Source: Ginglymostoma cirratum (lineage: Eukaryota). From it: 64,000 nucleotides of DNA. Position 1 is the first letter of the stretch; every line of letters starts with the position of its first letter. Of the stretch, positions 7,563-60,813 are shown in pieces. The notes under the pieces are model-generated. The model saw only the letters and a list, made by a program, of their open reading frames with translations. It was not told where the DNA came from and did not search any database. The stretch lies in the NCBI GenBank assembly GCA_024137785.1, contig JAHRHZ010000085.1, positions 2,108,279 through 2,172,278 on the forward strand, read 5' to 3'. A program made the translations under genes and the position numbers.

Positions 7563-7608
7563 ATGATCATGCTGCAGCGCATGTTGGTCCTCGAAATGAT
7601 CTCGACAG
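7563..7608 (+). CDS. Exon 1, leader peptide MIMLQRMLVLEMIST(A)
   Basis: ATG at 7563 and donor ACAG|GTATTT at 7608/7609 (phase 1), followed by a 151-bp intron to the V exon, as in Ig/TCR leader-V organisation. The start could instead be a downstream in-frame ATG. Confidence 0.75.
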
Positions 7609-10600
7609 GTATTTTCTGGGAAAAAAAATCAATTTTTAAAATCGTCTTAATATTTATTCATGTTAGACTGTATCACTTTACCTTTTAGGAGTTTTCAAGT
7701 CAGATCTCAATGTTGAATTAATGGAATGCATTATTTTTCTCTCTCTTTTTCTTTGAAAGCTTTTTGCTATTCCCATATCCAGGTGTCACAGAAGCCTCAA
7801 CGCATTATTCGGAATTTCAGTGAAAATGTAACCATCACTTGTGCTTTCAGTATTCCGTCTGATGATTCAGACGTGGGTGTCTTCTGGTGGAAACTTGGCG
7901 ATAATGCATTTCTGCATCCTATCTCCGACGCTAGGAAACGGTATTTTAAGAGAAAGGGCCAGGGCACCTTAATGCTCATTGACATCCGTCTTAATGATGC
8001 TGGAGTTTATTTCTGCGGAGTTAATCAAAACAGTGCAACGATTAGCAACGGGACTGGAACGACACTTGTTGTCTACAGTAAGTGTCATTGTAGGTGAAGG
8101 AATTGTTAGAAATCTCGATACATTGTTTAACCGCTTAATAGTATTGAATGACATTGTAGAATGCTGTTGAAAACAAAAAAATAATGCTGGAAATCACACC
8201 GGGTCAGGCAGCATCCATGAAGAGAGAGCAAACTAAGGTTTCAAGTCGAGATGACGCTTCATCAGGGCATTCATTGCAGTATGTTGTCATGTTTGCATCA
8301 TTGCAATGCCAAACAGGGCAGGAAGATTAGTAAAATCTCGAAAAAAAATCATTCAACAGGAATTATGTATATCCGATCGAGTTAACGTGATTAGAACATA
8401 GAACATAGAACATTACAGCGCAGTACAGGCCCTTCGGCCCTCGATGTTCCGCCGACCTGTGAAACCAATCTGAAGCCCATCTAACCTACACTATTACATT
8501 ATCATCCATATGTTTATCCAACGACCATTTAAATGCCCTTAAAGTTGGCGAGTCTAATACTGCTGCAGGCAAGGCATTCCATGCCCTTACTACTCTGAGT
8601 AAAGAATCTACCTCTGACATCTGTCCTATATCTATCACCCCTCAATTTAAAGCTATGTCCCCTCGTGCTAGCCATCACCATCCGAGGAAAAAGGCTCTCA
8701 CAGTCCACCCTATCTAACCCTCTGATCATCTTGTATATCTCTATTAAGTCACCTCTTAACCTTCTTCTCTCTAACGAAAGCAGCCTCAAGTCCCTCAGCC
8801 TTTCCTCATAAGACCTTCCCTCCATACCAGGCAACATCCTGGTAAATCTCCTTTGCACCCTTTCCAATGCTTCCACATCCTTCTTATAATGCGGTGACCA
8901 GAACTGTAAGCAATACTCCAAGTGCGGCCGCACCCGAGTTTTGTACAGCTGCAACATGAGCTTAACGCGAAATGATTGCGAAATTGTCGTGTTTCGTCGA
9001 TATTGTCAATGCAAAATGCTGAAAGCCTGAAATCTTGAGAATGGAGTGTATGGAAACAATGTATAGAAACAATGATTTTCTGAAGAAGGGTCTCGACCCG
9101 AAACGTCACCTTTCCGGCTCCTCTGATGCTGCTTGGCCTGCTGTGTTCATCCAGCTCTACACCTTGTTATCTTGGAAACAATGTTTTTTTTAATCTAACA
9201 GAACCATTATTGTGGGACGTGCTCCATTCTATTACAGATCCTAATGAATCAAATCATCCAATTCTTTAACATTGACCTCATAACAAAATGAGCTGAAATG
9301 ATTTAACCACGTTAGAGTGAAGTCGATTAGGCTGCCAGCAAATTTATATATTGTTTTACTGGTGGAAATTCGAGGAAGAGACCTGTTCCAGCGTGCTCTG
9401 AATGATCGCCGATTATACAGTGAATATATTCCCAAAAGAATATAATTTCCTGTTCATAATGTTATCTTCAGCTGAGCTGGTGATGCATTTTTCTCCCAAT
9501 GATTAAGCGGGAAGTTCATGAGTATTAGTTGATAAGGCCAAGCAGCCAAACATCTTAGGGCACTGGAATAAAACGACACAAACGGGCATTCATGGTTGTT
9601 TCTTCTCGTGTTTAGACCAAATTGTAAGCAAATATTTTATCAACAAGCACGGAATTTCCCAGAACAATTTATATCCACGATTCATACGGCATTCCGTTAT
9701 TCTAGAAATTGATGGAGTTGTCAGGTTATTTTGGCATTTGCAGTTAGACTTGTGCATCTGAGGTCAGATACCACCTAATGTTTGCTTTTGTCTAGTGAAT
9801 TAATCCCATACATTGAAAGAATAGATACCCACAATGCAGAAAGAGGTGATTTGCCCGATCGAGTCTGCACCGACCCTCCGAAGTTCATCTTACCCAGACC
9901 CACTTTATCCCTGTGATTCCTGTAGTGTACTAAGAGCTCGATATAGCTTCACGTTGATCAAGCGTATTTGCATGACTGTTCCACTTAAGCAGCACATCCC
10001 TGTGTGCTACGGGGAAATCTAGTATGGCTAATCCGCCTAACCTGCACACTGTGGGAGGAAATCGGGGCACCAGAAGGTAACCCACGCAGACATGGAGAGA
10101 ATGTGCAAGCTCCACACAGACAGTGGCCAGAGGCTAGAATCGAACTCGCGTCCCCGGCACTGTGAACCAGCGATACTAACCACCAGCCGCCCCAATTAAA
10201 TAGCACTACAATGAATTGCGCAAAATTTTTGCGCTAATCAAATAAATGGCTCAACACAGAGTCACTCTTGTGTAACTCTTATTTTCCAAATTAATAAAAC
10301 AATACTCAGCATTATTCATTGGTTATGAGATATAATGATGTTCTAAATCGACAGCGCTGAACGATGTTATCTTAATCCCTTTACAGATCCACCATCTACC
10401 CCCACGATACTTTCTAAAACACCTGATGGAAATTCAGACATCTATTTACATCTCGTATGTGAAACAGTTGACTTTTACCCAGCGGCGATTACATTCAACT
10501 GGTACAAAAATACAAGCAAGATTGTCACCGGGATAAAGACAACACAGTACTTGACCGATGCGGGGCTATATCGAGCTTTCAGTACTCTACAGGAATCACA

Positions 10601-13600
10601 GCCAATCCAGAAAGGCACCTCTTATATTTGTTTGGTTTCTCACAGCGCCACCCAAAGTTCGAAATTGTCTGTTCATTTGGTGTCAAGTTCTACCTCAGGT
10701 AGGGAGCCAACGAATGAATTTGTATATAATTAACAACGCTATTACTGAAACTGCACAGAAATAAAACGATAGCTCAAAACTTTTATTGACATAGAAATTG
10801 AATGCTAAATATTGAGACAAGAAAAACTGGAGATGCTAGAATCCAAAGTAGACAAACAAGAGGCTGGAAGAACACAGCAAGCCAGGCAGCATCTGGAGGA
10901 AGATGGAAGCCAACGTTTCGGATATTACTCTTCTTGAAGAAGGGTAGTACCTGAAAGTTGACTAACTATTGAGGTTCTGAACCTGCACATGCAAACTGAG
11001 TATATAGAAACATAGAACAGTACAACACAAGAACAGGCCATTCAGATGACCACGTCTGTGCAGGTAATGATGTACCTCACCTAGGGCTGAAGATGATGCA
11101 AAGATCTCTGTCAAGCCCAACAATCTCCCCCCTCGCCTTCCTCAGTATCCTGGAATAGATCCCATCAGGCGCTGGGAACTTATCTACCTTAATGTTTTTC
11201 AAGGCATCGAACACCTCCTTCTTTTAATATTGACATGCCATAGGATATCAACACACCTCTCTCTAATCTTACCATTTTCCATGTCCTTCTCCTTGATGAA
11301 TACCAATGCAGAGTACTCATTAAAGACCTTACCCACTTTCTCTGGCTCCACGCATAAATTCCTTCCTTTATCCTGCTGTGCACCTATCCTTTCCCTGGCT
11401 ACCCTATTTGCTCTAAAATGGATATAAAATGCCTTGGAATTTTCTTGTCAAGGCCATTTCAAGATCCCCTCTGGCCCTCCTAATTTCTTGTTTTAATACT
11501 TTCCTGCTTCCATAATATTCCTTAAGGGCCTTTTCTGATTTCAGGGTCCAACACCTTACATATGTTTTCTTTTTCTTTTCGACTAGACTTTCATTATCTC
11601 TGGTCATCCAGGATTCCCAAACTTTGCCATCCTATCTTTCTCCCTGATAGGATCTTGCTGGTCCTGAATTCTGATCAACTGACCTTTAAATGGCTCCCAT
11701 ATGTCAGAAATGGATTTACCTTCAAACAGCAGCCTCCAATCTAATTTCTCAACTTCCTGCCCAATACTATTGCAATTAGCCTCCTCCAATTTAGCACTTT
11801 CACCTGAGGACCAGCTTTATCCTTATCCATAAAAATCTTAAAATTCATGGAATCATGATCACTGTTCCCAAGTTGCTCCCCACTGAAACTATAAACAAGC
11901 TGGCTTGGCTCTTGCCAATACAAGCTCCCTTACCTAGTTGGACTAGCGATATATTGTTTCATGAAGTCCCTCGCAGATTCACATAAAAATTTCTGCCCAA
12001 TCTAAGTCCTTGGCAGTAAGGGAGTCCCAGCCAATATTAGGGAAGTCAAAATCAACCACAACAATTATGCTGTCATTCTAACATCCTTCCATGATTTGCT
12101 TACATATATGTTCATCTATCTCTTGTTGACTGTTGGGAAGCCTATAGTGTGACCCCATCATACTGATTGCAACTTTTTTATTCCTGAGTTCTGTACATAT
12201 GGACTGTCTGGATGAGCCCTCAAATACACCCCCTCTTAGTGTGACATTCTATCTTACCTTAAACATCTAGACCCTGGAACAGTGAGTTGCTAATACTGCC
12301 CTTCTCTCAGCCAAGTTTCTGTAGTGGCTGTAATGGCTATGATATGTAGTCCCATGCAATAATTCAGGCTCTAAGATCATCAACCTTACCTGTTATGCAC
12401 TTAATCCTGCAAGTTTTGCTGACCAACCTGGTCCTGCCTGTTCTTCCTATTAGACTTACTTGACTTAACTTCGACCTTCTTCTCAATCACTCAATTTGCT
12501 GGCCTACTGTTCTACTTTCCACACCTTGCCTCACCAGTTCTCGAGTGGTATTAGCAAACCAAACAAAGATATTGGTGCCCCTCTAATTTGGGTGCAAGTC
12601 ATCATTCTTGTACAGGTCCCTCCTTCCCCGGAAGAGATCCCAATGATCCAGACATCTGAAGACATCCCTCTGACACCAGATCTTTAGCCATGCATTCAAC
12701 TGTGTTATCTTCCTATTTATGGCCTCGCCAGTCAGTGGCACAGGGAGTCATCCTGAGCTTACAGTCTGAGAGGTCCTGCATCTCACTTTCCTACCTGAAT
12801 CCCAAAATTCCCTTTGTAGGACCTCACCCCTCTTGCTGCCTATGGCATGCATTCCAGTATGGACAATGATTTCTGGCTGCTCACCCTCCTCTTTCAAAAT
12901 ATCCTGCACACACTGAGAGATATCCTTGACCCTGGCCTGGGAAGGCAACATGCCAACCTGGAGTCTTGCTTGCAGCCACAGAAATATCTCTGTGTTCCTG
13001 ACTACACATTACCATCATTACTATTTGCTGAAACTTTGATCTTCCCTGCGGTTCATGAGATTCAATCGTGGTGCCACTGATCTGGCTGCTGCTATTACTT
13101 TCCCTGAGAGGTCATATCCCAACTTCTAACAATATCAAAAATGTTATACTTGTTTGAGTGGGGACTAGCCACAGGGTACTCTTTCATTGCCTGCCTGCCT
13201 GCCCGCCCTTCTGCACTCATCTGGCTAAATATTTGGTGTGACCACATCCCTGAAATGCCAGTCTATATAAAAGCAGGACATTGCTGCCTGTGGCAATCTG
13301 TGCCTTTGGACACTGTATGATAACCATGTTTGTACACTTTGCAGGTCGTGACCGTAATCATTGACGGGTATTCAATAGGAATTTAAGGCAAAGAGACTTT
13401 ACTCATAAACCAAATTCGTGTGTGAACTCGTCGGCACAGGAAGTGTCTCAGTGAAATAGAGAAGTGTTTAAAACCAAAAGAAACATTTAAAAGATATGTC
13501 CTGATAAGTTGAGATATGATACTTTAAATGGAGCATGTAGCACATTCATCAGCAAGAGCAGATAGGCTAATTCCACTACAGTGAAATGAATTGAAAGAAA

Positions 13601-16600
13601 AATTGGACTTTCCCGTTCCAATATCATTTTAGGTGTGAATTTCTTCCAAACAAGCTTTGAAGCTTGAATTTGAATGTTAAAATTGTAGAATTATATTCCT
13701 TTAGTTTTTCATTTATATTGCTGAAAACGAAAATAAGCTGTCAAAGCTTTCCACCTTCCATTCATTTGGGCCCATGAAATAATACCAAATTTCAATATGA
13801 CCAAAAGAAACAGTACACATGAGAATTGAATAATAGAAAAATTGTTTGAAGAGAATTGAATAATAGAAACATAGAAATTGTTGGAAAAGCTCAGCAGATC
13901 TGGCAGCATCTATGGAGAGAAATCAGAAGTAACGTTTCAGGTCCAGTTCTGAGGAAGGGTCACTCGACCCCAAACGTTAGTTCTGAATTCTCTCCACAGG
14001 TTCTGCCAGTCCTGCTGAGCTTTTCCAGCAATTTTTATTTTTGTCTCTGATTTACAGCATCTGCAGTTCTTTCCATTTTTACATGAGGACGGATGCTGAT
14101 TGTTTAACAAGTCAATGTTAATTTGGCAGTCCTGTATTTCTACTGATGAGTTGAACATGAAAAGCTTTGACAGCATGTCTTTCTTTCCCATCTCTGAGCA
14201 TTATCTTTCACTCTGTCTTTCTCACTGAATATTGGATGGAATATTACCTACTTTCCTGGACGAGCACAACTGCAACAACATTTAAGAAGCTTAACACCAT
14301 CCAGAACAAAGCAACCGCTTGACTGACATCACATCCACAAACATTCAGTCACTCTCCTACCGAAGCTCGGTAGCATTGATGCATACAATTTGCAAGATAC
14401 ATTGCAGAAATTTATTTAATGTCCTTAGACAGCGCCTTCCAAACCCACACCACTTCCATCTTGAAGGATAAGGGCAGGAGTTAAATAGACGCACCACAAC
14501 CTTCTAGCTTCCGTCCAAGCCACTCACCATCCAGACTTGGAAATATATCACTGCTTCTTCACTGCTACCGGGTCAAACTCCTTGAATTCCATCTCTAAGG
14601 AGTTACTTACAGAACACGGACTGCAGCAGTTCAACAAGGCAGCTCACCACCACCATCTCAACGGCAACTGGGGCCAGGCAATATGATGCCCACATCTCAT
14701 GCATGAATAAAATCACAACTCGGCTCGGTCAAGTAGACTGCTTGGCCTGTAATCTGTGGGAAATCAGACACCATGCTCTTGTCCCAGATAACATGTTTTT
14801 CCTACAATACATACTTCAGTTACTCTATTTATAATTTTTTCAACTTGCATAACTACTTTCGATAACTCATTTCTAGCTATTCATATTTCTGTTATTAATT
14901 CCACGTCTTCATCAATTTCTGAGAAAGTAACTTCCTTGTAACTTCCCGAGAATAACCTTGAGACTTTTCTACCTGTATTAATTTTAGACCCCGCGCAATG
15001 TCCTCAGATTTGTGTTGTCAATTTCTGCTTCCAGTAGGTACCAGTCCGTCTAACACACGATACATTGCTATTGAAGTAGTGTACGCTTTAAGGTTCACGA
15101 CCAATCCAAGCCCTAGAACCTCCTCCATTTTGAAAACACATTTCCTATTATTTTAAAAGATTACGCCCGCGAAAAGCCTGCAATGTATCGTCGTGTGATA
15201 GGAATGAGCAATTTCATGTCAAGATTGCCTTCTGTCAGGGTAAATGATTTGACGGGCGATATCCAACAGGACAGTTTAAAATTAACAGAACAAAACATCA
15301 ATACATCAATTCAAAGGAACAAGGCATGACACAAAAAAAGCACGAAGGAAAGATTTTATCGCTTCGATTTGTCTTGGGATATATTTTTAATTTCACTCCA
15401 GTTTTCATGCGCTGCAGTCTAATTGGTATTGCTAACTTTACAGTTTTCATGCATACACGAAGTTAGTAAATTGTTGATAATTATTGATTTGTCGTAAGTT
15501 CTATCTCAAAAATCTTCCCAGCTACATTCATTAATCTTACAGGCATTGGCATTAATTCTGACATTTTGGCGATTGGGTGCGCAGTCAGCGGATTCGTCTG
15601 TCTCGTGCTGGGGGCCGTCATTGGAAAGCGATGCAAGTCACGTTCGTGCAAAGGTAAAGAGCTCTGTGTTTACTTAGTTTTAAGGTTTTCGATCAGTTAA
15701 AAAGGAAATGTTATTGTCAGTGGCTCCTAACTCGAATCTAAAAAAAATCTTTCTCATCTTAATCGGGACTCGATCATTGGATGACACACTACTAACATGA
15801 ATGAATACTTTAAAATGTCCTTTTAATGTTATCACCAATTTCCTGTTTATACTGAAGTATGGGTACAATTCGGAATCCAAAATTATGAGCAGCTAGTGAT
15901 TCTAATGAATAATGTTTACGTATAATTATGAACCAAGACGATATGCCTCATAGAAGTTGAACGTATCGGTGCCTCTCATTTGGACTGTAAAAAGAAAGTA
16001 AAGTCTTGCAATTTCTATTCCCAATGCATAGGGACAAATCAAGATGCACCTCGACCATGCGAAGAAACGGTACGTCCATATATGTAACACCCTTTTAAGA
16101 GCATGTTAATTATTTTGCATTATGGAAACAAACTGTAATTTTCTCGTGTGTCCATCTTCTTTCTGTTGTAGCCATAAGAATTAGAGGTGGGGAGAAAAGA
16201 CATTGACACTAATCTCCATTGTCAGTAGGTTCATTGAATACTAGAGTAAAAGCAATGTGATGCAAGACATCTCAATTAAGTCAGAAAGTGTTGGAGAAAC
16301 TCAGCAAGTATGGCAGCACTGGTGGATAGAGAAACAAGGTTAGCCAAAGACAATATGACTCTTTATGAGATAACAAGCATGGGGCTGGATGAACACAGCA
16401 GGTCAAGCAGCATCATAGGAACAGGAAAACTTGACGTTTCGGGCCTAAACCTTTTATCTCTGATACAATNNNNNNNNNNNNNNNNNNNNNNNNNNNNNNN
16501 NNNNNNNNNNNNNNNNNNNNNNNNNNNNNNNNNNNNNNNNNNNNNNNNNNNNNNNNNNNNNNNNNNNNNNNNNNNNNNNNNNNNNNNNNNNNNNNNNNNN

Positions 16601-19600
16601 NNNNNNNNNNNNNNNNNNNNNNNNNNNNNNNNNNNNNNNNNNNNNNNNNNNNNNNNNNNNNNNNNNNNNNNNNNNNNNNNNNNNNNNNNNNNNNNNNNNN
16701 NNNNNNNNNNNNNNNNNNNNNNNNNNNNNNNNNNNNNNNNNNNNNNNNNNNNNNNNNNNNNNNNNNNNNNNNNNNNNNNNNNNNNNNNNNNNNNNNNNNN
16801 NNNNNNNNNNNNNNNNNNNNNNNNNNNNNNNNNNNNNNNNNNNNNNNNNNNNNNNNNNNNNNNNNNNNNTGCTGAGTTTCTCCTGTACTTTCTGGCTGTA
16901 TATCATCAAATTCGGGAATTATTTTGACCAAACATTATGAGAATTCATGTTCTAAATATGTGTAAAATAGCTAAGACTAAGCAACACACATGAACATCAG
17001 CATGACTGAAATTGTGGAAAGCCCTTTATAATCATTATGGCCCATCACTTAACGAAAAGTACAAGACTGTAATTTTAAGATTGCATTCAAGATCTTACTT
17101 CACTTCCAGACACCTTTCAGGTAACTCGATTAATAGTGTAGTTTTGGCATGCAATTGAAATCGAGCAGATGTAGTATTTTATTGGGCATACTGCTATTCG
17201 CTTTAACTGGAAATTTAATGCCATGCATATCACCTGGTGCAGATATAGCATGGCAAGTGACAACATTTAAAACTTTTTGAAAAGATTTGCAGCTTGGGTT
17301 CTGGATAAGGTTGTAGACATGCTCGCCGAGCCAGTAGGTTTGTTTGCAAATGTGTCGTCACACTGGTAAGTAACAGCGCCAGTATGCCTCCGGTGAAGCA
17401 TCGATGTTCTGTCCCACTTGTTATTTACATGCCTCAGTTTGCTGGGGTGATTGGTATTCCCTCCATGACTGTTTCTCAGTGGTTTATACGCACGGACTAA
17501 TTCAATGTGTTTGTTGATGGAGACTGACAATACGGATACATGAACACCAACTAGCCACCAATAGACATGACAAATTCTCACTTGTCTCACCACAACATGG
17601 ACAATGAGAGGCACGAATTTGACTGGGACAACACATCCATAATCGCACAAGCCAAACAGAGCCGTGCCAGGGAATTCCCGGATGCCTGGTATTCCAACCC
17701 GAACTCCATCAACATTCAATTAGACCCTGCGTACAAACCGCTGAGAAACAGAACCAGAAGTATTACAAACCAGCCCAGCAAACCGAGACATATAAATAAC
17801 CAATGGGACAGAACATCGATGCTTCACCGGAGGCATACTGGCGATGTTACATAGCAGGGTGATGAAATGTATGCTACCAAACCTACCGGCTCGGCGACCA
17901 TGTCCACAACCTCTACATTAAAAATCTCAGATTGAAGCAGTCTATATCCAACACCAAGTGCTGTCAAACAAATTAAAATAAAACTTTCAGCTAGGTGACA
18001 GAGAAAGGAAGGAAGTCGTGTGTTTGAGAATGGGGAGACAATCACCTCGTGTTATTGTTGCTGGACTGGACTTTTAAGCCAGAGGCCCAGATAATGTTCT
18101 GGAGACCCAGTTTTGAATCCTGCCATTGCAGATGGTGGAATTTGAATTCATTTTTTTTTAAATCTGGAAGTAAGAGTCTGATGATTATTATGAATGCATT
18201 GATGAGTGTCAGGAAATAAAAACAAACATTTGGTTCACTAATGTCCGATAGGGAAGGAAACTGCCATCCTTACTTAGCCTGGCCTACATGTGACTTTCAA
18301 CCTACAGTTGACTCCTAAATGCCCTCTGGGCAAACTGGGGATGGGCAATAAATGCTGGCTTAACCAGCAATGCCCTCATCCCATGAATGAATTTTAAAAA
18401 TAAAACGGATAGAGGGAGAGAAAGCAAAAACGGAGGTCAGAAGGATGGTTGGAACAATCCCAACCGATTAGTAAACTGTGTGCAAAGTTTCAGCAGTGAT
18501 GTCAATTTTTGTTCTCTGTCAGCAAAGAACAGCTTTGAGTACTCATTTTAGTGATACTTAGTTTACAGATATTTCATCATGCTTGTCAATATTCTGGCAT
18601 ATATTTCTCTAAGGAGGTACTTCCAGAGCATTTGCAGATTTGTGGGCTGGTCAAATAATGAAACAATTCATGAAATCAGATTTCAGTATTATCAGCTGTA
18701 TCAGTTGATAGCACACCATGAAGTAAAACACAGGCCTACAAATTTGCACTGAAACAATGTGGATTAACTGAAGTAAACATGAAGAAATATATGAAGGGAA
18801 AAAAATAACAGCTTACAGAGACAAACAGGCAAGGTAAAACATTGACAATATTGATGATAATATTCATAAATGAATCCATCTGCAACATTAATGTTATTTA
18901 GAGAAAAGAAGAATTTTTATGCATACAACCTTTCATTTAGTGTCAGCATCGCTGCAAGGTAAGCATTTTCTGTCCGTCTAAGTTGTCCTTGAATAGGTGG
19001 TGGTGAACCATATTCTTGTTATGCTGCATACAGTGGTACTTAGGTACAGGGAGACTGCACTTTTGAAGGGAGTTTGAGGATTCTGACTCAGTGATATACA
19101 GGGATGTACAAGGATTTCACGTTGACATAAGGAGGGAAGATGTGTTGGGTAGGCTAAAGGATATTAAGGTGGACAATTCCCCAGGACCGGATGGGATCTA
19201 TCCCAGGATGCTGAGGGAGGCAAGAGAGGAAATAGCTGGGGCCCTGACAGATATCTTTGCAGCATCCTTAAACACAGGTGAAGTGCCGGAGGACTGGAGA
19301 GTTGCTAATGTTGTCCCCCTGTACAAGAAGGGTAGTAGGGATATTCCAGGTAACTATAGACCAGTAAGCCTGACGTCAGTGGTGGGAAAGTTGCTGGAGA
19401 AGGTACTGAGGGATAGAATCTATTTATATTTGGAAAAGAATGGGCTTATCAGTGATAGGCAACATGGTTTTGTGCAGGGGAGATCATGCCTTACTAACTT
19501 AATAGAGTTCTTTGAGGACGTGACCAAGTTGATAGATGAAGGAAGGGCTGTAGATGTCATCTACATGGACTTTAGTAAGGCGTTTGATAAGGTTCCCCAT

Positions 19601-22600
19601 CGTAAACTAATGGAGAAAGTGAAGTCACATGGTGTGCAGGGTGTTCTAGCTCGGTGGATAAAGAACTGGTTGAGCAACAGGAGACAGAGAGTATTAGTTG
19701 AAGGGAGTTTCTTGAAATGGAGAAAGGTGACCAATGGTGTTCCACAGGGATCAGTGCTGGGGCCACTGTTGTTTGTGATATACATAAATGATCTGGAAGA
19801 GGGCATAAGTGGTCTGATCAGTAAGTTTGCAGATGACACAAAGATTGGGGGAGTAGCAGAAAGCATAGGGGATTGTCAAAGAATACAGGAGAATATAGAT
19901 AGACTGGAGAGTTGGGCGGAGAAGTGGCAGATGGAGTTCAATCTGGGCAAGTGTGAGGTGATGCATTTTGGGATGTCTAATTCTAGAGCAAACTATACTG
20001 TAAACGGAAGGAAAAGTTGATGAGCAGAGAGATCTGGGAGTTCAGGTCCATTGTACCCTGAAGGTGGCTGCACAGGTGGATAGAGTGGTCAAGAAGGCAT
20101 GTGGTATGCTTGCCTTCATCGGATGGGGTATTGAGTATAAGAGCTGGCAGGTCATGTTAAAATTGTACAAGACTTTGGTTCGGCCGCATTTAGAATACTG
20201 TGTACAGTTCTGGTCGCCACATTACCAAAAGGATGTGGAAGCTTTGGAGAGGGTACAGAGAAGGTTTACGAGGATGTTGCCTGGTATGGAAGGTGCTAGC
20301 TATGAAGAGAGGTTGAGTAGGTTAGGATTGTTTTCATTCGAAAAAAGGAGATTGAGGGGGGACCTGATTGAGGTCTTCAAAATCATGAAGGGTGTAGACA
20401 GGGTTGATAGAGATAAGCTTTTTCCCAGGGTGAGGGATTCAATAACGAGGGGTCACGCGTTCAAGGTGAGAGGAGAAAAGTTTAAGGGGGATACACGCGG
20501 AAAGTACTTTACACAGAGGGTGGTAGGTGCCTGGAACGCGTTGCCAGCAGAGGTAGCAGAGGCAGGCATGGTAGATTCATTTAAGGTGCGTCTGGACAGA
20601 TGCATGAGTAGGTGGGGAGCAGAGGGATACAGATCCTTAGGAATTGGGCAATAGGTTTAGACAGTTGATTTGGATCAGTGCTGGCTTGGAGGGCCGAAGG
20701 GCCTGTTCCTGGGCTGTAAGTTTTCTTTGTTCTTTGTTCTTTGTTCTTTGATATAGTTCTAATTCAGACTCCAGTGCAGATAGTGTTGCAAACATTCACA
20801 TATTGCTTTTATCTTTCAAGATAGTAGGAGTCATTGGGGGAGGTGATGGCCTCCCATCAAACTATTATCGCTAGACTGTTAATCCAGATAACATTCAGCA
20901 GACCTGGGTTTGAATCCCACCATGGCAAAAGGTGGAATTGGAATTCAATAAATATCTGGAATTAAGAGTCTAAAGATGACCTTTAGGGAAGGAAACCGCC
21001 ATCCTTGCCTGGTCTGGCCTACATATGACTCCAGACCCACAGCAATGTGGTTGAGTCTTAACTACCCTCTTGGCAATTAAGGTTGGGCAGTAAATGCTGC
21101 CTAGCCAGCAAAACCCTCATCCTATGAATGAATGAATAAATGAACAAGATACCTCCATGAGTTGCAACAGTGCTTTTTCAGATGGTATATTGGTAGTGGT
21201 GAGATTGAAGATTTACGGTGGTGTATTGGTTGAAAATCATGCAGGCTGCTTCAGAATGTATGGAGCTTTGTGTGTACTAGAGCTGTACCTACCCATGGCG
21301 CAGTGAGTATCATCAAGGTCTCAATCTGTGATTTTTATGTAGCAGGCAGGTTTGGGGAAGTGTAAAGTAAGTGGTTCAATACTGGCCAATTACCAGCTCA
21401 GGCTTGAATATTATCCAGTATGGACATGGACTGTTTCAGTAAATAAGCATCATGACTGGTCAAGAGCTCTGTGCATTCAGCCAGAACATTCCACCTCCTA
21501 GACTTATTGTGGAGTTAAGGTCATTATTGAAGAAGCTCAAAATGATTCCACCCATGACTCTAATCTTAGCAACTGATGCAGTGATGGCCTGAGACTAAGG
21601 TGACTGCTGTCCAACAACCACAGCCATCTTTGCTTGTGTTAGACATAATTAGCAGACAGTGCATTCCCTCACTTCTATTGACTTAGTTTTAGCAGACGTC
21701 AAACACAGTTAAATGTTACTTTGATGTAAAGTGCAGTCATTCTCACCTCAGCTCCTCAGCTTGCCTCATTTGCCCATCCACGAAGGCTTTAATGAGATCA
21801 GTGGCTGAGTTGCTCTGGCAGTACTGGGTAATCGTGACAGCTGTTTTGACTGTGTGAGCGTTGTTTTATAACACTTTATAACGCTGGACTCATTCTGGAG
21901 ATCAGTCTGACAGACAGTTTATCAGCCAGGTTAAATTTGTCCTGCCTTCTGTTGACACGATGTAAGTGGAATATTTTTCAGGGGGATGCCAGTATTTTAC
22001 CTGTACTGAAACAACTGACTGATTGTGCAACCAACGTGGGAGCCCCTTTTTCTCATTGTATTAACCAAAATTTTGTATTGCATCGGCTCAAAAACGCAGC
22101 TCACCTGAAAGGCAACCAAGGGTGGGGAAAAGTACTGATTCAGTGATTGGTGCTCACATCTCATGAGTGAATGTATTTTTTAAAATGTCAGGGCACATAG
22201 CCTTTGAGTAAATCAAGAGCCAACAATGGTCTTATCAGGCTTAAACAATTTCAGTCTCTGGGTCTCTAGGTTCGGTCTCTGGAATTAGGTGCCACCTTCT
22301 CCTGTTTCTTCATCTTGTCTCACAGAAAGACTGTTCAGTCCACAAAAAGTTTTGTCAATAAGTTGGAGTTATGTGACTGCAGACATCAGTAATAAATTAA
22401 GACAGCTGTTATCACCCTCAGTCAGTGTTGTGAGAATCAGGAAACAATGAATATCATACAAGTTAGACCAAGGAGACATAAGTGGGAATGCATAATATAC
22501 GTGGACAAAGATACCCAAAACCATAAAACTGAGTAGTGGGCAGGGAGCAAAATGACTCAAAATATATTAAGGCTGAGTTGAGAATCAGTGGATAGAAGAT

Positions 22601-23515
22601 GAAATGACTGACTATAGGTTCTCAGATAGCGTGAGATTTTCGTGTATAAAAGAAAGAAAGAACAGGGCATCAATATAACACCTACTCACAGTTAGGAAAT
22701 AGTGATTGATATATCCACTGCCATTCTGCAGCGTCATGTAGGAAGGTTTTGGTTGCACAAAATTAATAAATATGTTTTGATCACGAATGGAAGTCATATT
22801 TAACAATTTATTGTCCAAGGTTTTGTAAGCTCCCCATGGAAGGTAATGGTTTAACTTAAAAGACAAAAAAAAACTTAATGGAATAAAAACACAATGAGAC
22901 ATAACCTGCTTTAACCTTGTGTGCAAGGACGCGACTCTAAGCCAGCAATCCCTAAGTTTAATAAAAACAAATCTGAGTAAAAAAAGCACATGACTGTTGA
23001 AATACTGACAATAACAGATTCTCTTTTGTTTCTGGCTCTGGATATACCTGAATTTATGTATTAAGCATTAACTAAATGATAAATCTACCCTCATGCGCCA
23101 ATAATGTAGGCTGCATTTTAGGACTCATCAAGTACTTCGTTCTAAAAGATTTCATGTTGTTTGGTGCAATTATAAACTGTAATAATGTTCTACTTTCAAC
23201 ATAAATATCACATTAGTTAAATTCGTTCCAGTTACATTTAGACCGGCATCATATTATGATCAATAGCTTGCAACCAAAATCTTTAACTTTTACATTTAAT
23301 GATCTGAAAGCTAATATGAAATATTGTTGGACTTAAAGCATTCTGAATCGTTACAGACACTGGAAGTAACCGAAGATAGCAACCTGGGTTATGCAGCTCT
23401 CAATATGTTTAGTTCGGAGAAAAGATGGACGCACAGACAACAGGAAAATTGTACACATTACGCTGCAATTAAGACAGGCATGGATGCTGTGCGCGATTCG
23501 TCCGCTGAAATTTAG
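7563..23515 (+). CDS. Six-exon inhibitory IgSF receptor: leader-VJ-C1-TM-ITIM/ITSM (NCR3/SIRP/VJC1-like, non-rearranging). join(7563..7608,7760..8077,10387..10698,15543..15653,16032..16069,23357..23515), 327 aa
   Basis: Manual splice reconstruction: all introns are GT-AG, phases are 1,1,1,1,0, and exon lengths sum to 984 nt = 327 codons + TAG with no internal stop. Domain motifs are recognisable in the V, C1, TM and tail exons. Confidence 0.88.
7760..8077 (+). CDS. Exon 2, V-set Ig domain with germline-encoded J-like G strand
   Basis: AFCYSHIQVSQKP...NVTITC...VFWWK...LIDIRLNDAGVYFCGV...SNGTGTTLVVY contains the B-strand Cys, C-strand Trp, DxGxYxC and GxGTxLxV. Acceptor TTTGAAAG, donor GTAAGT. 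Confidence 0.95.
8393..8960 (-). mobile_element. Young CR1 LINE 3' end in intron 2
   Basis: Open 142-aa frame [41 protein letters not shown] and a (TTCTATG)n tail. Confidence 0.92.
9076..9172 (+). mobile_element. Short Penelope terminal-repeat insertion with hammerhead core (9080-9107)
   Basis: CTGAAGA-AGGGTCTCGACCC-GAAACGTC; TGGAAACAATGT is repeated on both sides. Confidence 0.75.
9815..10195 (-). mobile_element. tRNA-derived SINE (HE1/V-SINE-like)
   Basis: On the minus strand: A-box/B-box-like head (GTGGTTAG...GTTCGATTC) followed by the TGTGTGGAGCTTGCACATTCTC core. Related copies lie at 49455-49785 (-) and 52025-52810 (+). Confidence 0.8.
10387..10698 (+). CDS. Exon 3, C1-set Ig domain
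   Basis: NPPSTPTIL...LHLVCETVDFYPAAITFNWYKN...GLYRAFSTL...SYICLVSHSA carries the LxC, FYP, W and YxCxVxH C1 signature. Acceptor TTTACAG, donor CAG|GTAGGG; 312 nt, phase 1-1. Confidence 0.93.
11005..13250 (-). mobile_element. Decayed CR1 LINE (ORF1 esterase-like and ORF2 endonuclease region, plus 3' tail)
   Basis: EGEQPEIIVHTG...EVLQREF (ORF1 SGNH-like), LGNSDHDSMNFKI...LNWRR (endonuclease), and a CTATGTTTCTAT tail near 11005. Confidence 0.8.
13872..14078. mobile_element. Palindromic terminal-repeat derivative of a second Penelope-like family
   Basis: Inverted arms (GGAAAAGCTCAGCAG... / ...CTGCTGAGCTTTTCC) flank CTGAGGAAGGGTCACTCGACCCCAAACGTT. Relatives lie at 24100-24230 and 35772-35905. 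Confidence 0.7.
14225..14715 (+). mobile_element. 3' end of a second LINE family (CR1/L2 group)
   Basis: Homologous to 51400-51895; ends in ...GCCCACATCTCATGCATGAATAAA. Confidence 0.7.
15543..15653 (+). CDS. Exon 4, transmembrane exon GIGINSDILAIGCAVSGFVCLVLGAVIGKRCKSRSCK
   Basis: Acceptor CTTACAG, donor AAG|GTAAAG; 111 nt, phase 1-1. About 21 uncharged residues are followed by a basic stop-transfer sequence. Confidence 0.9.
16032..16069 (+). CDS. Exon 5, short cytoplasmic linker GTNQDAPRPCEET
   Basis: Acceptor CATAG, donor ACG|GTACGT. It converts phase 1 to phase 0, which is exactly what is needed to join exon 4 to exon 6. Confidence 0.78.
16470..16870. other. Assembly gap (401 N) in intron 5
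   Basis: Run of N directly after a young Penelope terminal repeat (16369-16452, - strand). Confidence 0.99.
17309..17911. mobile_element. Penelope-like fragment with ~210-bp inverted repeats
   Basis: Arms 17309-17522 and 17704-17911 are reverse complements. The centre encodes the GIY-YIG C-terminal-like peptide HEFDWDNTSIIAQAKQSRAREFPDAWYS...IN. Confidence 0.8.
18032..18400 (+). mobile_element. tRNA-derived SINE with Deu-like core (SacSINE1-like)
   Basis: B-box-like GTTTTGAATCC, GGAAGGAAACTGCCATCCTTAC core and a LINE-type tail ending in ATGAATGAA. Other copies lie at 20836-21140 and 57040-57240. Confidence 0.7.
19091..20750 (+). mobile_element. Young 5'-truncated CR1 LINE with near-intact reverse transcriptase, in intron 5
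   Basis: 309-aa and 196-aa frames (SPGPDGIYP, YRPVSLTS, DFSKAFDKV, GVPQGSVLGP, FADD) separated by one frameshift at ~20010; (TTCTTTG)n tail. Confidence 0.95.
20836..21140 (+). mobile_element. tRNA-derived Deu-like SINE
   Basis: Same head, core and tail as 18032-18400. Confidence 0.75.
21150..22180. mobile_element. Decayed LINE (second family) fragments, mostly - strand
   Basis: Similar to 53310-54535 and to the reverse complement of 50600-51895. Confidence 0.55.
23357..23515 (+). CDS. Exon 6, cytoplasmic tail with ITIM (LGYAAL) and ITSM (THYAAI)
   Basis: Acceptor TTACAG, phase 0; TLEVTEDSNLGYAALNMFSSEKRWTHRQQENCTHYAAIKTGMDAVRDSSAEI*. Confidence 0.88.
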   Translation, partial: TLEVTEDSNLGYAALNMFSSEKRWTHRQQENCTHYAAIKTGMDAVRDSSAEI

Positions 23516-37400: not shown

Positions 37401-38025
37401 CAGGCAGTGACAACACTCAAGGATAAACAGTTTCATCATCTCCCGGTAAAGCATTTCACCAATGTCTTTAAATCTATGACCCTTGAATCATTGTCCTTTG
37501 CATGAAGGTACATGACCTCTTCCCTATTCACCATGCCACGGCCCGTCTCAATTTTGTGTATTCCAATAAAACTACCCCCCAGCGTCATCAGTTTCAATGA
37601 CAAAGGCTTCAGCCCATCCGATTGTTCTTGAGCCATACTTTGAAGTCCTCACAGAACCTCCGAAGTACTTTTTGTATCCTCACTAGCGGAATCATTTCTG
37701 TTGTGGCTTCCGGTCACAAAAACAACAGCAGGTTTTATTTGAAAAGGTCTGCATTTTTTCATTCAGCATTCAAGTAATCCTGGGCTCATTGGCCTCACAC
37801 AAACATATGCAATTAAAATGGAGACGGAGTTGAGCATTTAACAATCAATTCTGGTCTCAGACACAACTGATAGTCTCAGATTTTCACTGTCAATATGTCT
37901 ACGTGCTATTCATAACAGGACGTCTGTACGCTATGCATCATGTGTGCAAGTACACTCATCTTTAGCCATGTTTTAACTGTTCATTATCAAGACGCAACAT
38001 GAACTTAAAGCTAGATTGGAAAACT

Positions 38026-39513
38026 ATGCAGATACTTAATTTTGTTATTATTAATTTTGTGTTTTTTTTGCACGTTAAGTATTCACAGAGCTCATTTGCC
38101 ACGGCATTAGAGGGAAGAAAATACGACATGCAATGAGGACAACAGTTTAAAAATTGGAGTGTTAGTCAATTAGGCATGGGAAATTGCTGTTGCATCAATG
38201 ACTTAGAATGATGGTGCTATTTGGATGGGTGCAGACTGTCCTTCTTGTTTATCTCAGTGTGTTTCCTTAGTTGATAGTTGCTGTGGGCATTTAGGCCAAA
38301 GTGAAACAAGATCTTAGATGAATAACAAAATAGACAGGTTCATCAGTCTCATGTAATGTCCTTTTTTCTTCAAAACTGACCATTTAAACGTTGTCACTTA
38401 CTGGTGGAGTGAAGCAATCATGCAGGAGGATAACAGAAAGTTATTCACTGTCGTTAGAGGAACAGGCTACCTTAATCTTCTGAATGTGACTGCCGGGGAC
38501 GCTGGAACATACAACTGTATAGTCACATATCAGCATTGAACGTTTGGGAAAGAAACTGTTGTGCAACTTACTGTATATGGTGTCACCACAGATAAACATG
38601 GTGTCTGAGCTGCATTTCATCTGGACATTTAACTTCTTTAGAATGAAATTATCAACAGTGTGAGAAAATTGTAAGGACTGCCACACTATAAAGATTACCA
38701 TTGGCACTTCATAAGAAAATTGTATTGAAATGTATCTATTGCAAGTTAATACCAAACTTTGATCCTACCCAGTATTCCTTTCTACTCTAAGCATTGGGAA
38801 GCAATTTGAAAAGTTACATATATTATCTGCAGTATTATAGATTTTGAATATCTAGCATCTAATAAAAAATAAAATTCCTGCTCCCCCTTGTTTGGACTGT
38901 GGCTGTCGCAGTTTCTATGATCTAGAATCCAGTTCCAAACCGCTTGTTAAGAAAGATGCTGAATGATATTCTAAATATATTTGTAATAATTAATATGTAT
39001 ACAAGTTAGAAACCAATCTTGCTGAACTTGGAAATGGTGCATCAATCGCTTTTGGGGGTGGGGGAATTTGCAATATCTTAAACATAACAATTACTTCAAG
39101 CAAATAATGACTACTAAGGCAAAAACTGCGCCCTGAAATTACAGATGGCTTGTTAATTAAATAATTGAAGCTTTGGAGTAGGAATCTGATGATTCAATTT
39201 TTCTGAATTATATTATTTACAATGCAGCTTCACTAACTCCACTGAAAATTGTGCCACATACATTGGAAGAAGGTTCTTTCATTCTGCAGTGTAGGACTTC
39301 TGCCAATTTCCCAAAAGACTTTTATCTTACTTCATACAAAAATGATACAAAAGTCTTGAACGGACTTAGAAATGAACAAACACCACAGACTTTATGAGGT
39401 TGTCAGCACCTTAGAGTCAGAGGCAGTTGAATGCTACAGTTTACACTTGTCAAGTGCAACATTTCAAGCTCATTTCGAGCAAATGTCAGTTACATTATTG
39501 CAGAACGTGACTC
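38026..39513 (+). pseudogene. Pseudogene paralogue of the VJ-C1 receptor (leader 38026-38074, VJ 38278-38579, C1 39228-~39513)
   Basis: Leader MQILNFVIINFVFFLH with a decayed donor (G|TTAAGT). V: AVGI*AKVKQDLR*ITK*TGSSVS/CPFFFK...TYWWSE...NRKLFTVVRGTGYLNLLNVTAGDAGTYNCIVTYQH*TFGKETVVQLTVY. C1: SLTPLKIV...FILQCRTSANFPKDFYLTSYKNDTKV.../LYEVVSTLE/TVYTCQVQH. Multiple stops and frameshifts; no TM or tail exon found. Confidence 0.88.
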
Positions 39514-43365: not shown

Positions 43366-43411
<46 letters not shown>

Positions 43412-44035: not shown

Positions 44036-45299
44036 TCCTTTTCTATCCACCGAACTGCTGGACCTGCTGAGATTTTCCAGCAATTGCTGTTTTTATTTGT
44101 TTCAAATTTCCACATTGTTTGATAGAATCCAGTAATGCAGCTCTATATGAACAGCTTGGCTCAACATCACGCCACATCTGGAGCGCACATCTTCAGTATT
44201 ATTGCTGGACTGTTATCCTTTTGCAGCATTTAGTGACAGCATGTAGACTGATTCGAATCAGCTGATGACAGGTAGTAATATGCTTTGGGTCTTTGAAGGA
44301 GGCCAATATGCTCATTCACTCAGCACTTCTGGCTGAAGTTTTTTGTGAATGATTCAGCCTCACCTTTTGCACTAATGTGTTGGGCTTCCGCATCATTAAG
44401 GGAGAGAATATTTGTGGAGCATCCTACTGCAGTAAGTTATTTCATGGTTGAACGCCTCTCACAACTAGATATGGCAGTACTGAAAATTGTACACCTGAAC
44501 TGTTCACTGTGAAATTGACTAGCCATGTTTATCAGTTGTTGCATACACCATTTGGCAAGTAGGAGGTCCTACCTGCCACAGACCAACTGGTACACAGTTT
44601 AGGAACATAGGTGGTGAACTCTGGGGTATTTCACACCAAGTAATTGAAAAGCATCATCGTGATGGCCGCAGTATTCACTTTGTAATGTCATAGGAGCATT
44701 GCTATACGTCACCGTCTGTGCCTCACCTGAGTTTCTCCAAAATGGACCTAATTCTAGCTGTACAATTGCCCTAAAGAATCAATCAATTCATAACCTTGTT
44801 TACTTAATTTAGTCATTTTCACTGCCATTTTGGCTGATTCTCCAGACTGTTTGAAAAACACATCTTTTTGGGTTTTTTTTAATCATGCAAGAATGGACTT
44901 TTTGAATCAATCTAATTGTTCACAACGGATATGTTACCAACAATGCTGGGAGTGAAATAGAAGACCTCATTAAAGTCCATATTGGATTCCACCAACACTT
45001 TTACACCCAAGGCACACTTGCATATGTTGAACTCTTACTCTCATTTTCAGTCTTTATTTGGCATCTGAAGAGATATGTCTCCATCTGTATCTCTTATCTA
45101 CCAACACGTCTCCTTCTTTATTAAAAGCCAAAATATTCCCTGAATGGCAACTTAAGACAGAAACTAATTTACTTCCAATTATCCAATTTACTATCAAACA
45201 TGGGAACAATTTTCCCCTTCTACTCTATCCAGACCTCTCATAATGTTGCACATTCTATCAGATCCCCTCTTGCCCAACTTCTGTCTGTGCAGAACAACC

Positions 45300-46842: not shown

Positions 46843-46844
46843 AT

Positions 46845-48670: not shown

Positions 48671-48859
48671 TTTTTACAAGAATTCACATGGTTGTCATTG
48701 GGTTAGTTCTTATCTCCAGATTTTACTGAAAGAAAATATCACCATTCCATGGTGGATTTGAACCATGTCCCCAGGACATTTGACTGGGATTCTCGATTAC
48801 TAATACAGTGACATTGCAATCACATCACCACCTCCCCTATGAAGTGTAATCTTGCCAGT

Positions 48860-57890: not shown

Positions 57891-60813
57891 TTATGAACAG
57901 AAATGTACCTCTGCAAATATTGTTCTTTCATCCTGGGTCCTGGGAATTTTTGCATCATTTGAGTGCGTCATTTCAAGATCAGCATTTGTTAATGTATCTT
58001 CAGCCGTCTCTTAGTCAAGGGTTAACATTCATTAATTTACATTTTCTGGAGTCAAGAATCAATGTTTCATATAATCAATGACTATTATTTTGTCTCCTTG
58101 AGTTTGCTAGCACTCTGTTACATTCTTAATTGTTGGAAGCTTCTGTTTCCAATTTCCTTCTCGCCACGAGACAAAAATGAAGGCTGACTCATTATCTGAT
58201 GGAACCGTGTTCACAAACTATGAAACTTTATGGGTATGTTAAAATTTAGAAGAGGAACACTGCAAAATTCATTTTCCTGAGCACAAAATGATCGATTAAT
58301 TCAACATTAATAATTTTCAACATTCGTACAGAAATTATTCAAGATTACATCCTTTTACAAATAGCTGATGCTGTGTACTTTTTGCTCTAGATCTAGATGG
58401 ATTTGATCTGAATTTCCTTTACAAAGATAAATAAAGTCACTTAAATGCATGTCTCTTCATTTGGAAATAAAAGTACAATTCAAACTATGTGTAATGACTA
58501 AACCTCTACTCCATTGTTGGTTGTCTGGTGCATTAATTGGTTAGTAACTGACATCTGCCATACTTTTGCCTAATGCTGAAATTAATAAGTGAATTATACT
58601 CATAGAAGCAATTGTTTATCGGTAAGTTCAATAGTAATGAAATAATTAGATCTCAGTAATTGTTTCAATTGCACCATCTGAATGTTAATAAATGGGGCGG
58701 TGAAGATTTTTAGTGAAGCAGCTCACGCAATCCAATTCCATTGAATTTTTAAAGTACACAAGATGTCATACAGTATTTTTCAGAAAATTGTATATTTCAA
58801 TCTGAGGATTTTTTGTTAAGATAGAAACAAGAGACAACAGATTAATTAGGAGCCTGGAAACAGAGAGAGCAATGAAATAATTTAACAGTTACCCAATGAT
58901 GTTCCTTCAAATCAGTGAACAAAATATAAAATATCAATTTTGTTTTAAATACATATGCTTTCAGACATTTTATGCAATATTGCTTTATCACAGGGAATAC
59001 GTTATTCTCTTCAGATCTGCATGTCTGCACTTGAGTCATTGAAATATCGGTGAAATTTCAGAACCTGACAAGACCAGGGGAAATGAAGGGAAGCATTCGC
59101 AAAGCTTAGAATTATTTTAAAGAAGACAAATTCAAGGGCAAGGTGTGGAGCTGGATGATCACAGCAGGCCAAGCAGCATCATAGGAGCAGGAAAGCTTGA
59201 CATTTCGGGCCTAGACCTTTCATCAGAAAATGATTTTCTGATGAAGGGTCTGGGCCCGAAACGTCAAGCTTTCCTGCTCCTATGATGCTGCTTGGCCTGC
59301 TGTATTCATTCACCTCCACACCTTGTTATCGCGGATACTCCAGCATCTGCAGTACTTATGATCTCAAATTCAAGGGCAGTCTACTCACTGTATATAACAC
59401 TGAGAAAAAGGTATATGATTAAAAACAAATAAATAGAGATGAATGGCTATTGTATAATTGACTTTACAAACACATCATGGCAGGATGATCGGGAGAAATC
59501 ATTACTCAATAATATTCAATGACATTTTGGATGGACAAAGGAAAAGAAGACATATTAATATTACATTCATAGTAATGGATGGGATCTGCTCTCAGTCAAG
59601 AAGGATCACAGATCGGAATAAAAAAGTCAGGAAATTTCTATGCTGCAGCTAAGCAACAGCAAGCAGGGGGAAACATTAGTCATTGCTTATAAGCCACAAA
59701 CACTGGTAGTAAAGCGAGGCATAGACTAAATGTGAAAAAAGGTTATTGAAGTATAGCACATAGCTTTTGCAATAATCATGGCTAGATTCAATCTTGATAT
59801 AGGCATGGCAAATTAATGAGCACTAAAGCTGTGAAGAATGAGTTTCAGACTGTGTTAGGGATACTTTTCTAGAGCAGTTATGTTAAGGAACAGACTAGAG
59901 AACTGTGTCCATCTGCCAAAATGTGACAAAAAATAATCCATTCCTGATGATGTTATAAGGGAACCTAGAAGCATGAATAACCATACAATGATGAAATTAC
60001 TCATGACAAGTTTCATACTTATCAGTGTTTGTAATACTTCCAATAATTTCCTTCTTGATGTTTGTTTCATATTAAAGGCTAAGTCGTACTTTTTGTCATG
60101 AAAATAAAACCTTTTAACTTCAGCCAAATAGTTTAAACAAGATTATTTTGATTGAAAAGTCTGAGTCATTCAGATGAATCTCAAAGCAAATGGCAAAAGG
60201 CCTTACCGCATCTGTGTGTTGAGTAGGATTTCTTGTTTTTTCCTTTGAACCTGGTGACAATAAATATGGCATGAATTGTCAAGAGAGGTGTAATGCTTGC
60301 ATTCATCACTAAGCCAACAAAATTCAACGCACTTCACACAGACACAAGGTATAATAGACTAATTGGATTGAGAATGTAAATCAAAATGTTGAACGTATGA
60401 ACACATATTTAGTTATGTCTTGAAGCTGTGGAAATATTTCTTCATCATTGAAATTCATCAGATTACTTTCAGATCTGAAAAGATCGGATTTAGCATTCTA
60501 AAGCTATGAACATTAACATGTAATGCTCGTGCCGAAGTGACACAAATGCTTGCAAGTAGTTTCACATCATATATTTATTTTAACTGGATGTGTCAGATTT
60601 CATTACCCAATTATGTGAATTCAATTCAGATAGTTTAATCAATACTTGTATGGAAGTTATTTCATTTAGTATGTATATTCCTATTCATACATTTAGATAT
60701 AATGAATAGAAGACACTTCACAATCATCACTATCAAATGGTGCTTGTCATAATAGAATTGCAAGTGCCCTGGACATCCAGCAACAACAGCAACATTGATT
60801 TTAGAGGCAAAAT
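57891..60813 (-). pseudogene. 3' half of a third paralogue (TM exon 60813-60691, linker exon 60250-60207, tail exon ~58009-57891), probably degenerate
   Basis: Minus strand. TAG|ATTTT..: FASKINVAVVAGC...LIVMIVKCLL..SK|GTATGA (123 nt, phase 1-1). CAG|GT-SKEKTRNPTQHTDA|GTAAGG (phase 1-0). Tail (E)TAEDTLTNADLEMTHSNDAKIPRTQDERTIFAEVHFCS* aligns with exon 6 of the intact gene. Exon order and phases match, and the TM-linker intron is similar in size (440 vs 378 bp). Confidence 0.78.
59141..59364. mobile_element. Back-to-back inverted Penelope terminal repeats (two hammerhead cores) with 14-bp TSD
   Basis: Near-perfect hairpin centred at ~59232; CAAATTCAAGGGCA at 59127-59140 and 59365-59378. Confidence 0.9.

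Follow-up and report, generated by a model that had tools for sequence, protein, structure and literature searches.

Sharks possess the major histocompatibility complex (MHC) and antigen receptors, and to our knowledge no paired receptor family on the scale of KIR or LILR has been established for them. The definition of paired receptors that we follow comes from a paper in which LILRA receptors pair with FcR-gamma (PMC3533184). A 2021 review regards the NITRs as what may be the only non-Ig complex with diversified V regions among vertebrates (PMC7916673), and the VJ-C1 unit, a V domain with its J strand followed by a C1 domain, has been proposed as a precursor of antigen receptors (PMC10751288). 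Here we analyse a stretch of 64,000 nucleotides from the shark Ginglymostoma cirratum (contig JAHRHZ010000085.1, positions 2,108,279 to 2,172,278 of the forward strand), called the window in the following. It contains three loci within 53 kb. Judged from its sequence, the window is likely to be part of a cluster of paired immune receptors in chondrichthyans that are encoded in the germline, do not rearrange and have one VJ and one C1 domain each.

Receptor genes in the window

Six-frame scans of the window showed Ig motifs at about 8.0, 10.5 and 38.5 kb. The gene on the plus strand at 7563-23515, copy 1, has five introns, every one of them GT-AG, and an open reading frame (ORF) of 327 amino acids (aa; exons in Table 1). 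Proteins of the same length from whale, zebra and epaulette shark are collinear with it, and so is a bamboo shark protein. It agrees with whale shark XP_020368203.2 in 91/101 V and 101/104 C1 positions. Pfam recognised a V-set (33.7 bits) and a C1-set domain (46.9 bits), and the best single-domain PDB sequence match of the C1 domain was the constant domain of IgNAR (4q97, 44 bits). The splice donor at 8078 ends the V exon with the G strand already inside it. Because this J-like strand is part of the V exon, the gene is non-rearranging; separate V and J segments, as in rearranging Ig and TCR genes, are not found in copy 1. An alternative in-frame acceptor upstream (15522-15542, +) would lengthen the transmembrane (TM) exon by 7 residues; the orthologs match the acceptor at 15543. 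The last intron contains an assembly gap of 400 Ns (16470-16869), and a hidden coding exon there is unneeded since the orthologs likewise have 327 aa.

A word-based profile search with four orthologs of copy 1 yielded a single protein for each of 8 shark species, which range from sawshark to whale shark. Among the proteins compared, the nearest relative of copy 1 in the V tree is that of the whale shark. The V tree of the orthologs mirrors how the shark species are related, with a single protein found in each, and copy 1 therefore has the look of a framework gene that is stable and conserved across sharks. Its V domain differs from the whale shark protein at 10/100 positions and its C1 domain at 3/103 (Fisher p=0.047). 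The excess of V over C1 differences gave p=0.021 for Mustelus and was not significant for the horn shark (p=0.14). This proxy is no evidence of positive selection.

Copy 2, also on the plus strand, is a pseudogene with 6 stops and 4 frameshifts in total. Its VJ exon is interrupted by 5 stops and 1 frameshift and lacks 3 aa, while the C1 exon has 3 frameshifts and has lost the C-strand Trp. With hidden Markov models (HMMs) of the family, V reaches 63.4 bits and C1 31.6 bits, where 10 shuffled windows gave at most 7.1 and 7.8; the leader score of 46 lies close to the null maximum of 43. Exon scans of the window found no TM or tail exon 3' of copy 2 on the plus strand. A short downstream ORF with the motif TEYETI near 41030 (+), which resembles a switch motif of the immunoreceptor tyrosine-based kind (ITSM), was rejected as the tail of copy 2, as it has no match to the tail-repeat HMM.

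The exons of copy 3 lie on the minus strand. In frameshift-aware comparisons with zebra shark P0171, the TM, linker and first tail exons scored 77, 63 and 91; the maxima with 8 shuffled queries per exon were 45, 35 and 38. The best 19-aa hydropathy of the TM exon is 1.33, against 2.28 in P0171, and the two tail tyrosines have changed from Y to N and from Y to F. Copy 3 is probably, but not certainly, a pseudogene, because its net reading frame remains open. Its V exon is not in the window, and scans of the window did not find its terminal exon. Two candidates were discarded: 60475-60384 (-) as a tail, having no match to the tail-repeat HMM, and 49359-49264 (-) as the last exon, with a score within the null and an overlap with a repeat.

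These genes correspond to what the original prediction had described from the letters alone: an intact gene (copy 1), a leader-VJ-C1 pseudogene (copy 2, with the weak leader noted above) and, on the opposite strand, the TM, linker and tail exons of a third copy, which turned out to be damaged itself. It had also expected both of the latter to align to copy 1. This holds for the V domain of copy 2 (E=3e-8 in a search within the window; 28/90 identical), whereas copy 3 has no significant alignment to copy 1 or its orthologs (ortholog HMMs; tail 3.9 bits, E=2). Copy 3 is tied to the family via other members, since queries from its subfamily detect its exons clearly.

It is possible to count two genes instead of three. 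According to exon scans and the family HMM, the whole window holds exactly two V exons and two C1 exons. The parts of copies 2 and 3 are exactly complementary (V and C1 on the plus strand; TM, linker and first tail exon on the minus strand; no duplicates), and both first matched the subfamily of horn shark P0044, so we considered a single gene, perhaps already a chimera of two paralog lineages, whose 5' and 3' halves were separated when the segment was inverted in the genome or misassembled locally. The segment has pairs of inverted repeats on its two sides, for example 42040-42160 and 63499-63619. However, these flanking repeats occur many times within the window, and the visible DNA upstream of the copy 3 TM exon measures 3.2 kb, compared with 4.8 kb for the C1-TM intron of copy 1.

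A subfamily search revealed three zebra shark paralogs on one contig. The C1 domain of copy 2 is closer to P0167 (59/90) than to P0171 (46/94), and the first tail unit of copy 3 is closer to P0171 (20/34) than to P0167 (13/34). In the trees, the copy 2 ectodomain falls into a clade with P0167, P0172, P0177 and P0169 (99-100/98), which includes whale and epaulette shark proteins and is without P0171. The copy 3 endodomain groups with P0171 (88/90). Approximately unbiased (AU) tests gave p=0.044 against placing copy 2 with P0171 and p=0.048 against placing copy 3 with the other lineage, and both speak against a single inverted gene. Because the trees tie copies 2 and 3 to different zebra shark paralogs, three genes is the better reading and the favoured count; together with the exon scans, they make a single gene split by inversion quite unlikely. 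With three genes, copies 2 and 3 would be two distinct paralogs, convergent in orientation, from a subfamily with high turnover, both of them decayed in this genome, with copy 1 as the framework gene. A single deletion between the 3' ends of copies 2 and 3 could account for the loss of the TM and tail of copy 2 and of the last exon of copy 3.

Family members and receptor classes

An exhaustive profile search gave 61 matches at E<=1e-30 and 242 at 1e-10, of which the best 150 were taken. Of the 137 proteins retrieved (<=560 aa), 122 score as family. They comprise 56 proteins with a TM and a Tyr motif, 7 with a TM of the type Arg...[DE]H and 59 partial or other ones; isoforms are part of these counts, as is at least one outsider (P0144). 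Two further proteins, relatives outside the window, have an Arg...NH TM. Family proteins are typically 260-380 aa long, and one model (P0013) has a repeated C1. The tail unit measures 37-38 aa, with a Tyr spacing of 23 in 45/49 units. Named members come from Callorhinchus, Heptranchias, Pristiophorus, Heterodontus, carpet sharks, catsharks, Mustelus, Carcharodon and Cetorhinus, and among batoids from Pristis, Narcine, Leucoraja, stingrays and Mobula. Their automatic RefSeq names are scattered (SIRP-like, NCR3LG1-like, tapasin-like, Ig light chain-like, MHC II beta-like), which has kept the family hidden.

The family is diverse, with a median pairwise identity of 36% for V (1431 pairs) and 40% for C1, and at least four lineages unite sharks and batoids in V or C1 trees. 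Nine chromosome-scale assemblies have at least two named members, and in 9/9 of them the members share a single contig; this count leaves out three members of S. torazame, found on three short scaffolds, and two of C. punctatum, which come from different assemblies. Horn shark P0044/P0062 (87%) and zebra shark P0167/P0172 are recent duplicates. The 546-aa model P0169 of the epaulette shark joins two family genes in the same orientation, which implies that they are direct neighbours.

Members with an immunoreceptor tyrosine-based inhibition motif (ITIM) and short-tail members with an Arg in the TM were both found, together with similar ectodomains and a gene cluster; these are among the features by which paired Ig-like receptors are defined. 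Heptranchias P0065 (inhibitory) and P0081 (Arg TM), for example, have near-identical C1 domains (100/96) and share one contig, and the V domains of P0166/P0170 (99/96) show the same likeness across the two receptor classes. P0050, P0057 and P0091 belong to a third class, with a PWW-type TM, a Cys-rich juxtamembrane segment and a basic tail without Tyr motifs. Some isoform models (P0003, P0011; P0092, P0093, P0111) omit the TM or C1 exon and may be prediction artefacts. Soluble and V-only forms would be possible, because the flanking introns of copy 1 are all phase 1.

Among 54 family V domains, D[AST]GxYxC is present in 50, [FY]WW in 28, RKx(1-2)F in 28 and GxGxLxL in 5, and 40/54 have the J-like GxG strand. 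The glycosylation sequon NG[TS]G is common (32/54) and [FW]GxG in the J region is rare (3/54), which suggests that the V domain is more likely a monomer than part of an Fv-like dimer. An AlphaFold model of the whale shark ortholog consists of a signal helix, V, C1, a TM helix and a disordered tail (predicted local distance difference test, pLDDT, 80). The V domain of copy 1 was modelled (pLDDT 93) with strands A, A', B, C, D, E, F and G and without C'/C''. In line with such a short domain, 35 V domains of the family have a Cys spacing of 54-60, compared with 63-66 in SIRP and 65-66 in NCR3-like proteins. Most of the top Foldseek rows for the copy 1 V domain are VNARs. We read this likeness as convergent shortening, since NCAM2 and CD79b tie with VNAR by Z and IgNAR lies outside the family in the tree. 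Fold searches are poor at separating families here: Ig light chains dominate the list, and the top Z values are tied. In the V tree, the family members make up a clade (84/90) that is separate from those of SIRP and of NCR3-like proteins.

The shared names raise the possibility that the family is the chondrichthyan SIRP, a myeloid checkpoint of the CD47 type with two domains. SIRP-like occurs in many automatic names, and both groups have an unsplit VJ plus C1, tandem ITIM/ITSM-like tail units (spacing 24, against 23 in the family) and paired inhibitory and activating members. The family tail-repeat HMM matches 3/3 full-length SIRP-alpha-type tails with 14-23 bits, the family profile gives SIRP-alpha 2wng 112.9 bits, and a ranking by ESM features puts SIRP clusters in places 3-4 at 0.96. 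However, SIRP has two C1 domains (V-C1-C1) and the family one, with one C1 exon per gene in the window; the V domains of the family are shorter, with the Cys spacing given above, and the family members are far more divergent. SIRP V domains, including that of the coelacanth, form a separate clade (97/88), which could, given the deep branching, be a sister group. With the family V HMM they reach 18-30 bits, less than NCR3-like (39-45) and squamate VJ-C1 proteins (42-50). The activating TM residue of SIRP-beta is Lys, that of activating family forms an N-proximal Arg. SIRP is assigned to Tetrapoda in one source (PMC13262535), yet we retrieved a SIRP-like protein from the coelacanth. On balance, we consider an identity with SIRP improbable.

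It seems very unlikely that the family represents expanded B7-H6 (NCR3LG1)-like ligands of shark NKp30 instead of receptors. B7-H6 has the same V-C1 layout and gives the top fold match to the whole ectodomain (4zso; Z 16.6, root-mean-square deviation 4.0, 192 aligned), and NCR3LG1-like is among several automatic names. The best 60 of 8612 PDB profile matches do not include B7-H6. But the Z of 16.6 lies within 1 of those of Rst, Neph1 and another entry, which are unrelated two-domain proteins. B7-H6 also lacks the J-like GxG strand that is frequent in the family, and the combination of ITIM and Arg-TM forms is receptor anatomy.

Several observations weigh against a slice of a paired-receptor cluster as we describe it. 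Monophyly of the family has moderate support (V 84/90, C1 85/89; neither starred), and the C1 clade includes coelacanth and squamate VJ-C1 proteins. A shared contig is no proof of a tight cluster, and the three members of S. torazame are on three short scaffolds. The window has no activating TM exon (best 3.0 bits, within the null), and batoid or chimaera orthologs of copy 1 are absent among the 8 matches of the profile search. As to the number of genes, both AU tests are borderline, with groups that were named after the pairwise scores were known; a C1-only tree leaves copy 2 unplaced between the lineages, and the TM alone is ambiguous.

The broader expectations of the original prediction can be judged on this basis. 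An old multigene family with further members in related genomes was found as foreseen, in a chimaera, several shark orders and batoids. Its extension beyond the window applies to related genomes, where Heptranchias has 7 named models, Heterodontus 5 and Stegostoma 4, while for this genome it would follow from the missing 5' half of copy 3. The activating partners, proposed with an Arg or Lys in the TM, exist in relatives and were not found in the window. Birth-and-death evolution fits the subfamily of copies 2 and 3, with pseudogenes here and recent duplicates in horn and zebra shark, and is not supported for copy 1. The V signature that had been read from the window rests on two sequences, since only two V exons are present; family-wide, all of its elements recur except GxGxLxL, which is rare.

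If the window is indeed a slice of a paired-receptor cluster, copy 1 would be an inhibitory type I receptor whose short VJ domain binds a ligand. For this conserved inhibitory member, our best guess is a self cell-surface protein. Going by motif homology, both tyrosines of the tail would be phosphorylated by a Src-family kinase, and SHP-1 or SHP-2 would dock on the pair through its tandem SH2 domains and damp activation. The Ala at the position after the phosphotyrosine (pY+1) suggests that SHP-1 could bind; for PD-1 and BTLA, one study describes bivalent SHP-1/SHP-2 binding and a pY+1 Ala that permits SHP-1 (PMC8631942). Sister genes that combine a similar ectodomain with a short tail and have an Arg close to where the TM begins would signal via an adaptor with an activation motif of the immunoreceptor tyrosine-based kind (ITAM), e.g. 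FcR-gamma.

Features and repeats of the window

Table 1. Exons and pseudo-exons of the three receptor loci, in window coordinates
Feature	Position	Strand	Remarks
Copy 1 exon 1	7563..7608	+	Leader; ATG at 7563; phase-1 intron; 18/20 identical to whale shark P0001
Copy 1 exon 2	7760..8077	+	Unsplit VJ; Cys-Cys spacing 58; J-like NGTGTTLVV; model without C'/C'' strands
Copy 1 exon 3	10387..10698	+	C1-set domain (PF07654, 46.9 bits)
Copy 1 exon 4	15543..15653	+	Uncharged TM and basic juxtamembrane segment; model helix 231-259
Copy 1 exon 5	16032..16069	+	38-nt cytoplasmic linker; 12/13 identical to P0001
Copy 1 exon 6	23357..23515	+	Tail: ITIM LGYAAL, ITSM-like THYAAI, tyrosines 23 residues apart, stop
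Copy 2 leader pseudo-exon	37895..37949	+	Stop at 37913; weak support
Copy 2 VJ pseudo-exon	38278..38579	+	Stops at 38292, 38319, 38331, 38354, 38537; frameshift near 38344
Copy 2 C1 pseudo-exon	39228..39506	+	Frameshifts near 39389, 39432, 39463
Copy 3 TM exon	60691..60813	-	Hydrophobic core disrupted by compensating frameshifts
Copy 3 linker exon	60207..60250	-	44 nt, AG/GT intact
Copy 3 first tail-repeat exon	~57909..58007	-	Both tyrosines lost; tail HMM 18.2 bits, E=7e-5; boundaries approximate

Among the 126 ORFs of at least 72 aa that start outside 7.5-23.6 kb (158 in the window), Pfam matched only two reverse transcriptases and one GIY-YIG domain, and an Rfam scan of the window gave 0 matches; no further gene came to light in these scans. 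The window is repeat-rich, with 25% covered by self-matches. Copies of a Penelope-like element with a GIY-YIG endonuclease are found at 3372-4760, 33964-34440 and 41566-42160, recent ones being up to 96-99% identical. A reverse transcriptase fragment of a long interspersed nuclear element (RVT_1, 129 bits) lies in sense orientation in the last intron of copy 1 (19067-20654, +). A pyrimidine-rich low-complexity tract of ~1.6 kb (45125-46760) gives rise to long spurious ORFs. In an intron of copy 3, a near-perfect palindrome of 187 nt (59139-59325; 92%) consists of two head-to-head repeat ends.

Comparison with known receptor systems

The full-text literature searched contains no description of the family, with key subscription papers and some supplements beyond reach. 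Six gene names had 0 matches in the accessible supplements of the UrIg2 paper (PMC12227049), and SIRP, ITIM and B7H6 had none in the accessible content of one elephant shark supplement file (PMC3964593). The chance that members were previously described, e.g. as SIRP-, B7H6- or VJC1-like, is about one in three. The genes are already in RefSeq.

CD28 and PD-1 have a single extracellular V domain according to one source (PMC11599192), and the family has a C1 besides. NKp30/NCR3 shares the unsplit VJ and is the nearest outside cluster by predicted V structure (TM-score 0.87), but it has no C1, whereas copy 1 has a C1 exon. NKp30/NCR3 activates via an Arg TM. A horn shark protein that we take to be NCR3-like from its resemblance lies on a 74.5-Mb contig, the family members of that species on a 99.7-Mb contig, and it belongs to a separate V clade (99/97).

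UrIg and UrIg2, PRARP and tetrapod VJ-C1 genes share the non-rearranging VJ-C1 architecture with the family and are regarded as resembling antigen-receptor precursors. UrIg has 3 C1 domains and UrIg2 at least 9, with disulfide dimers and expression in liver and gill, whereas the family has one C1; ITIMs are not mentioned in the accessible main text of the UrIg2 paper (PMC12227049). The squamate VJ-C1 proteins are inside the family C1 clade, on a long branch, and outside the family in the V tree. Coelacanth XP_005987622 (P0151/P0181) resembles the family in its VJ-C1-TM layout and its two Tyr motifs 24 residues apart. Its C1 score is the best among the non-chondrichthyan proteins tested (69 bits), and it is the sister of the family in the V tree (83/74); it differs by a long branch and a Cys spacing of 64. 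From these alignments and trees, it is the closest candidate outside the family and a possible relic ortholog.

A bolder idea, which we regard as rather unlikely, is that an undescribed leukocyte-receptor complex of chondrichthyans comprises many germline-diversified VJ-C1 receptors, each resembling one unrearranged antigen-receptor chain that is connected either to ITIMs or to an ITAM adaptor. Such a complex would be the sharks' sensor of MHC class I or missing self, and a radiation, surviving to the present, of the type of VJ-C1 gene that the RAG transposon invaded, with a relic in the coelacanth and a V domain shortened as in VNAR.

Our preferred reading, a cluster of paired VJ-C1 receptors, provides concrete candidates for self-recognition by natural killer (NK) or myeloid cells of sharks. 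The shark family would be the second complex of such diversified V regions after the NITRs, built on the VJ-C1 unit. NITRs, which we compared by description only, have an I-type second domain, where the family has a C1-set domain. Those of ray-finned fish resemble the family in their clustered, non-rearranging V(J) genes, their activating and inhibitory forms and their birth-and-death evolution, as described in the review (PMC7916673). The shark family and KIR, LILR and PIR follow the same logic: ITIM forms, Arg-TM forms and a framework gene beside pseudogenes. KIR, LILR and PIR are built from C2-type domains and the shark genes from VJ and C1; with these different building blocks, the shark family may be a counterpart of the KIR, LILR and SIRP immune receptors.

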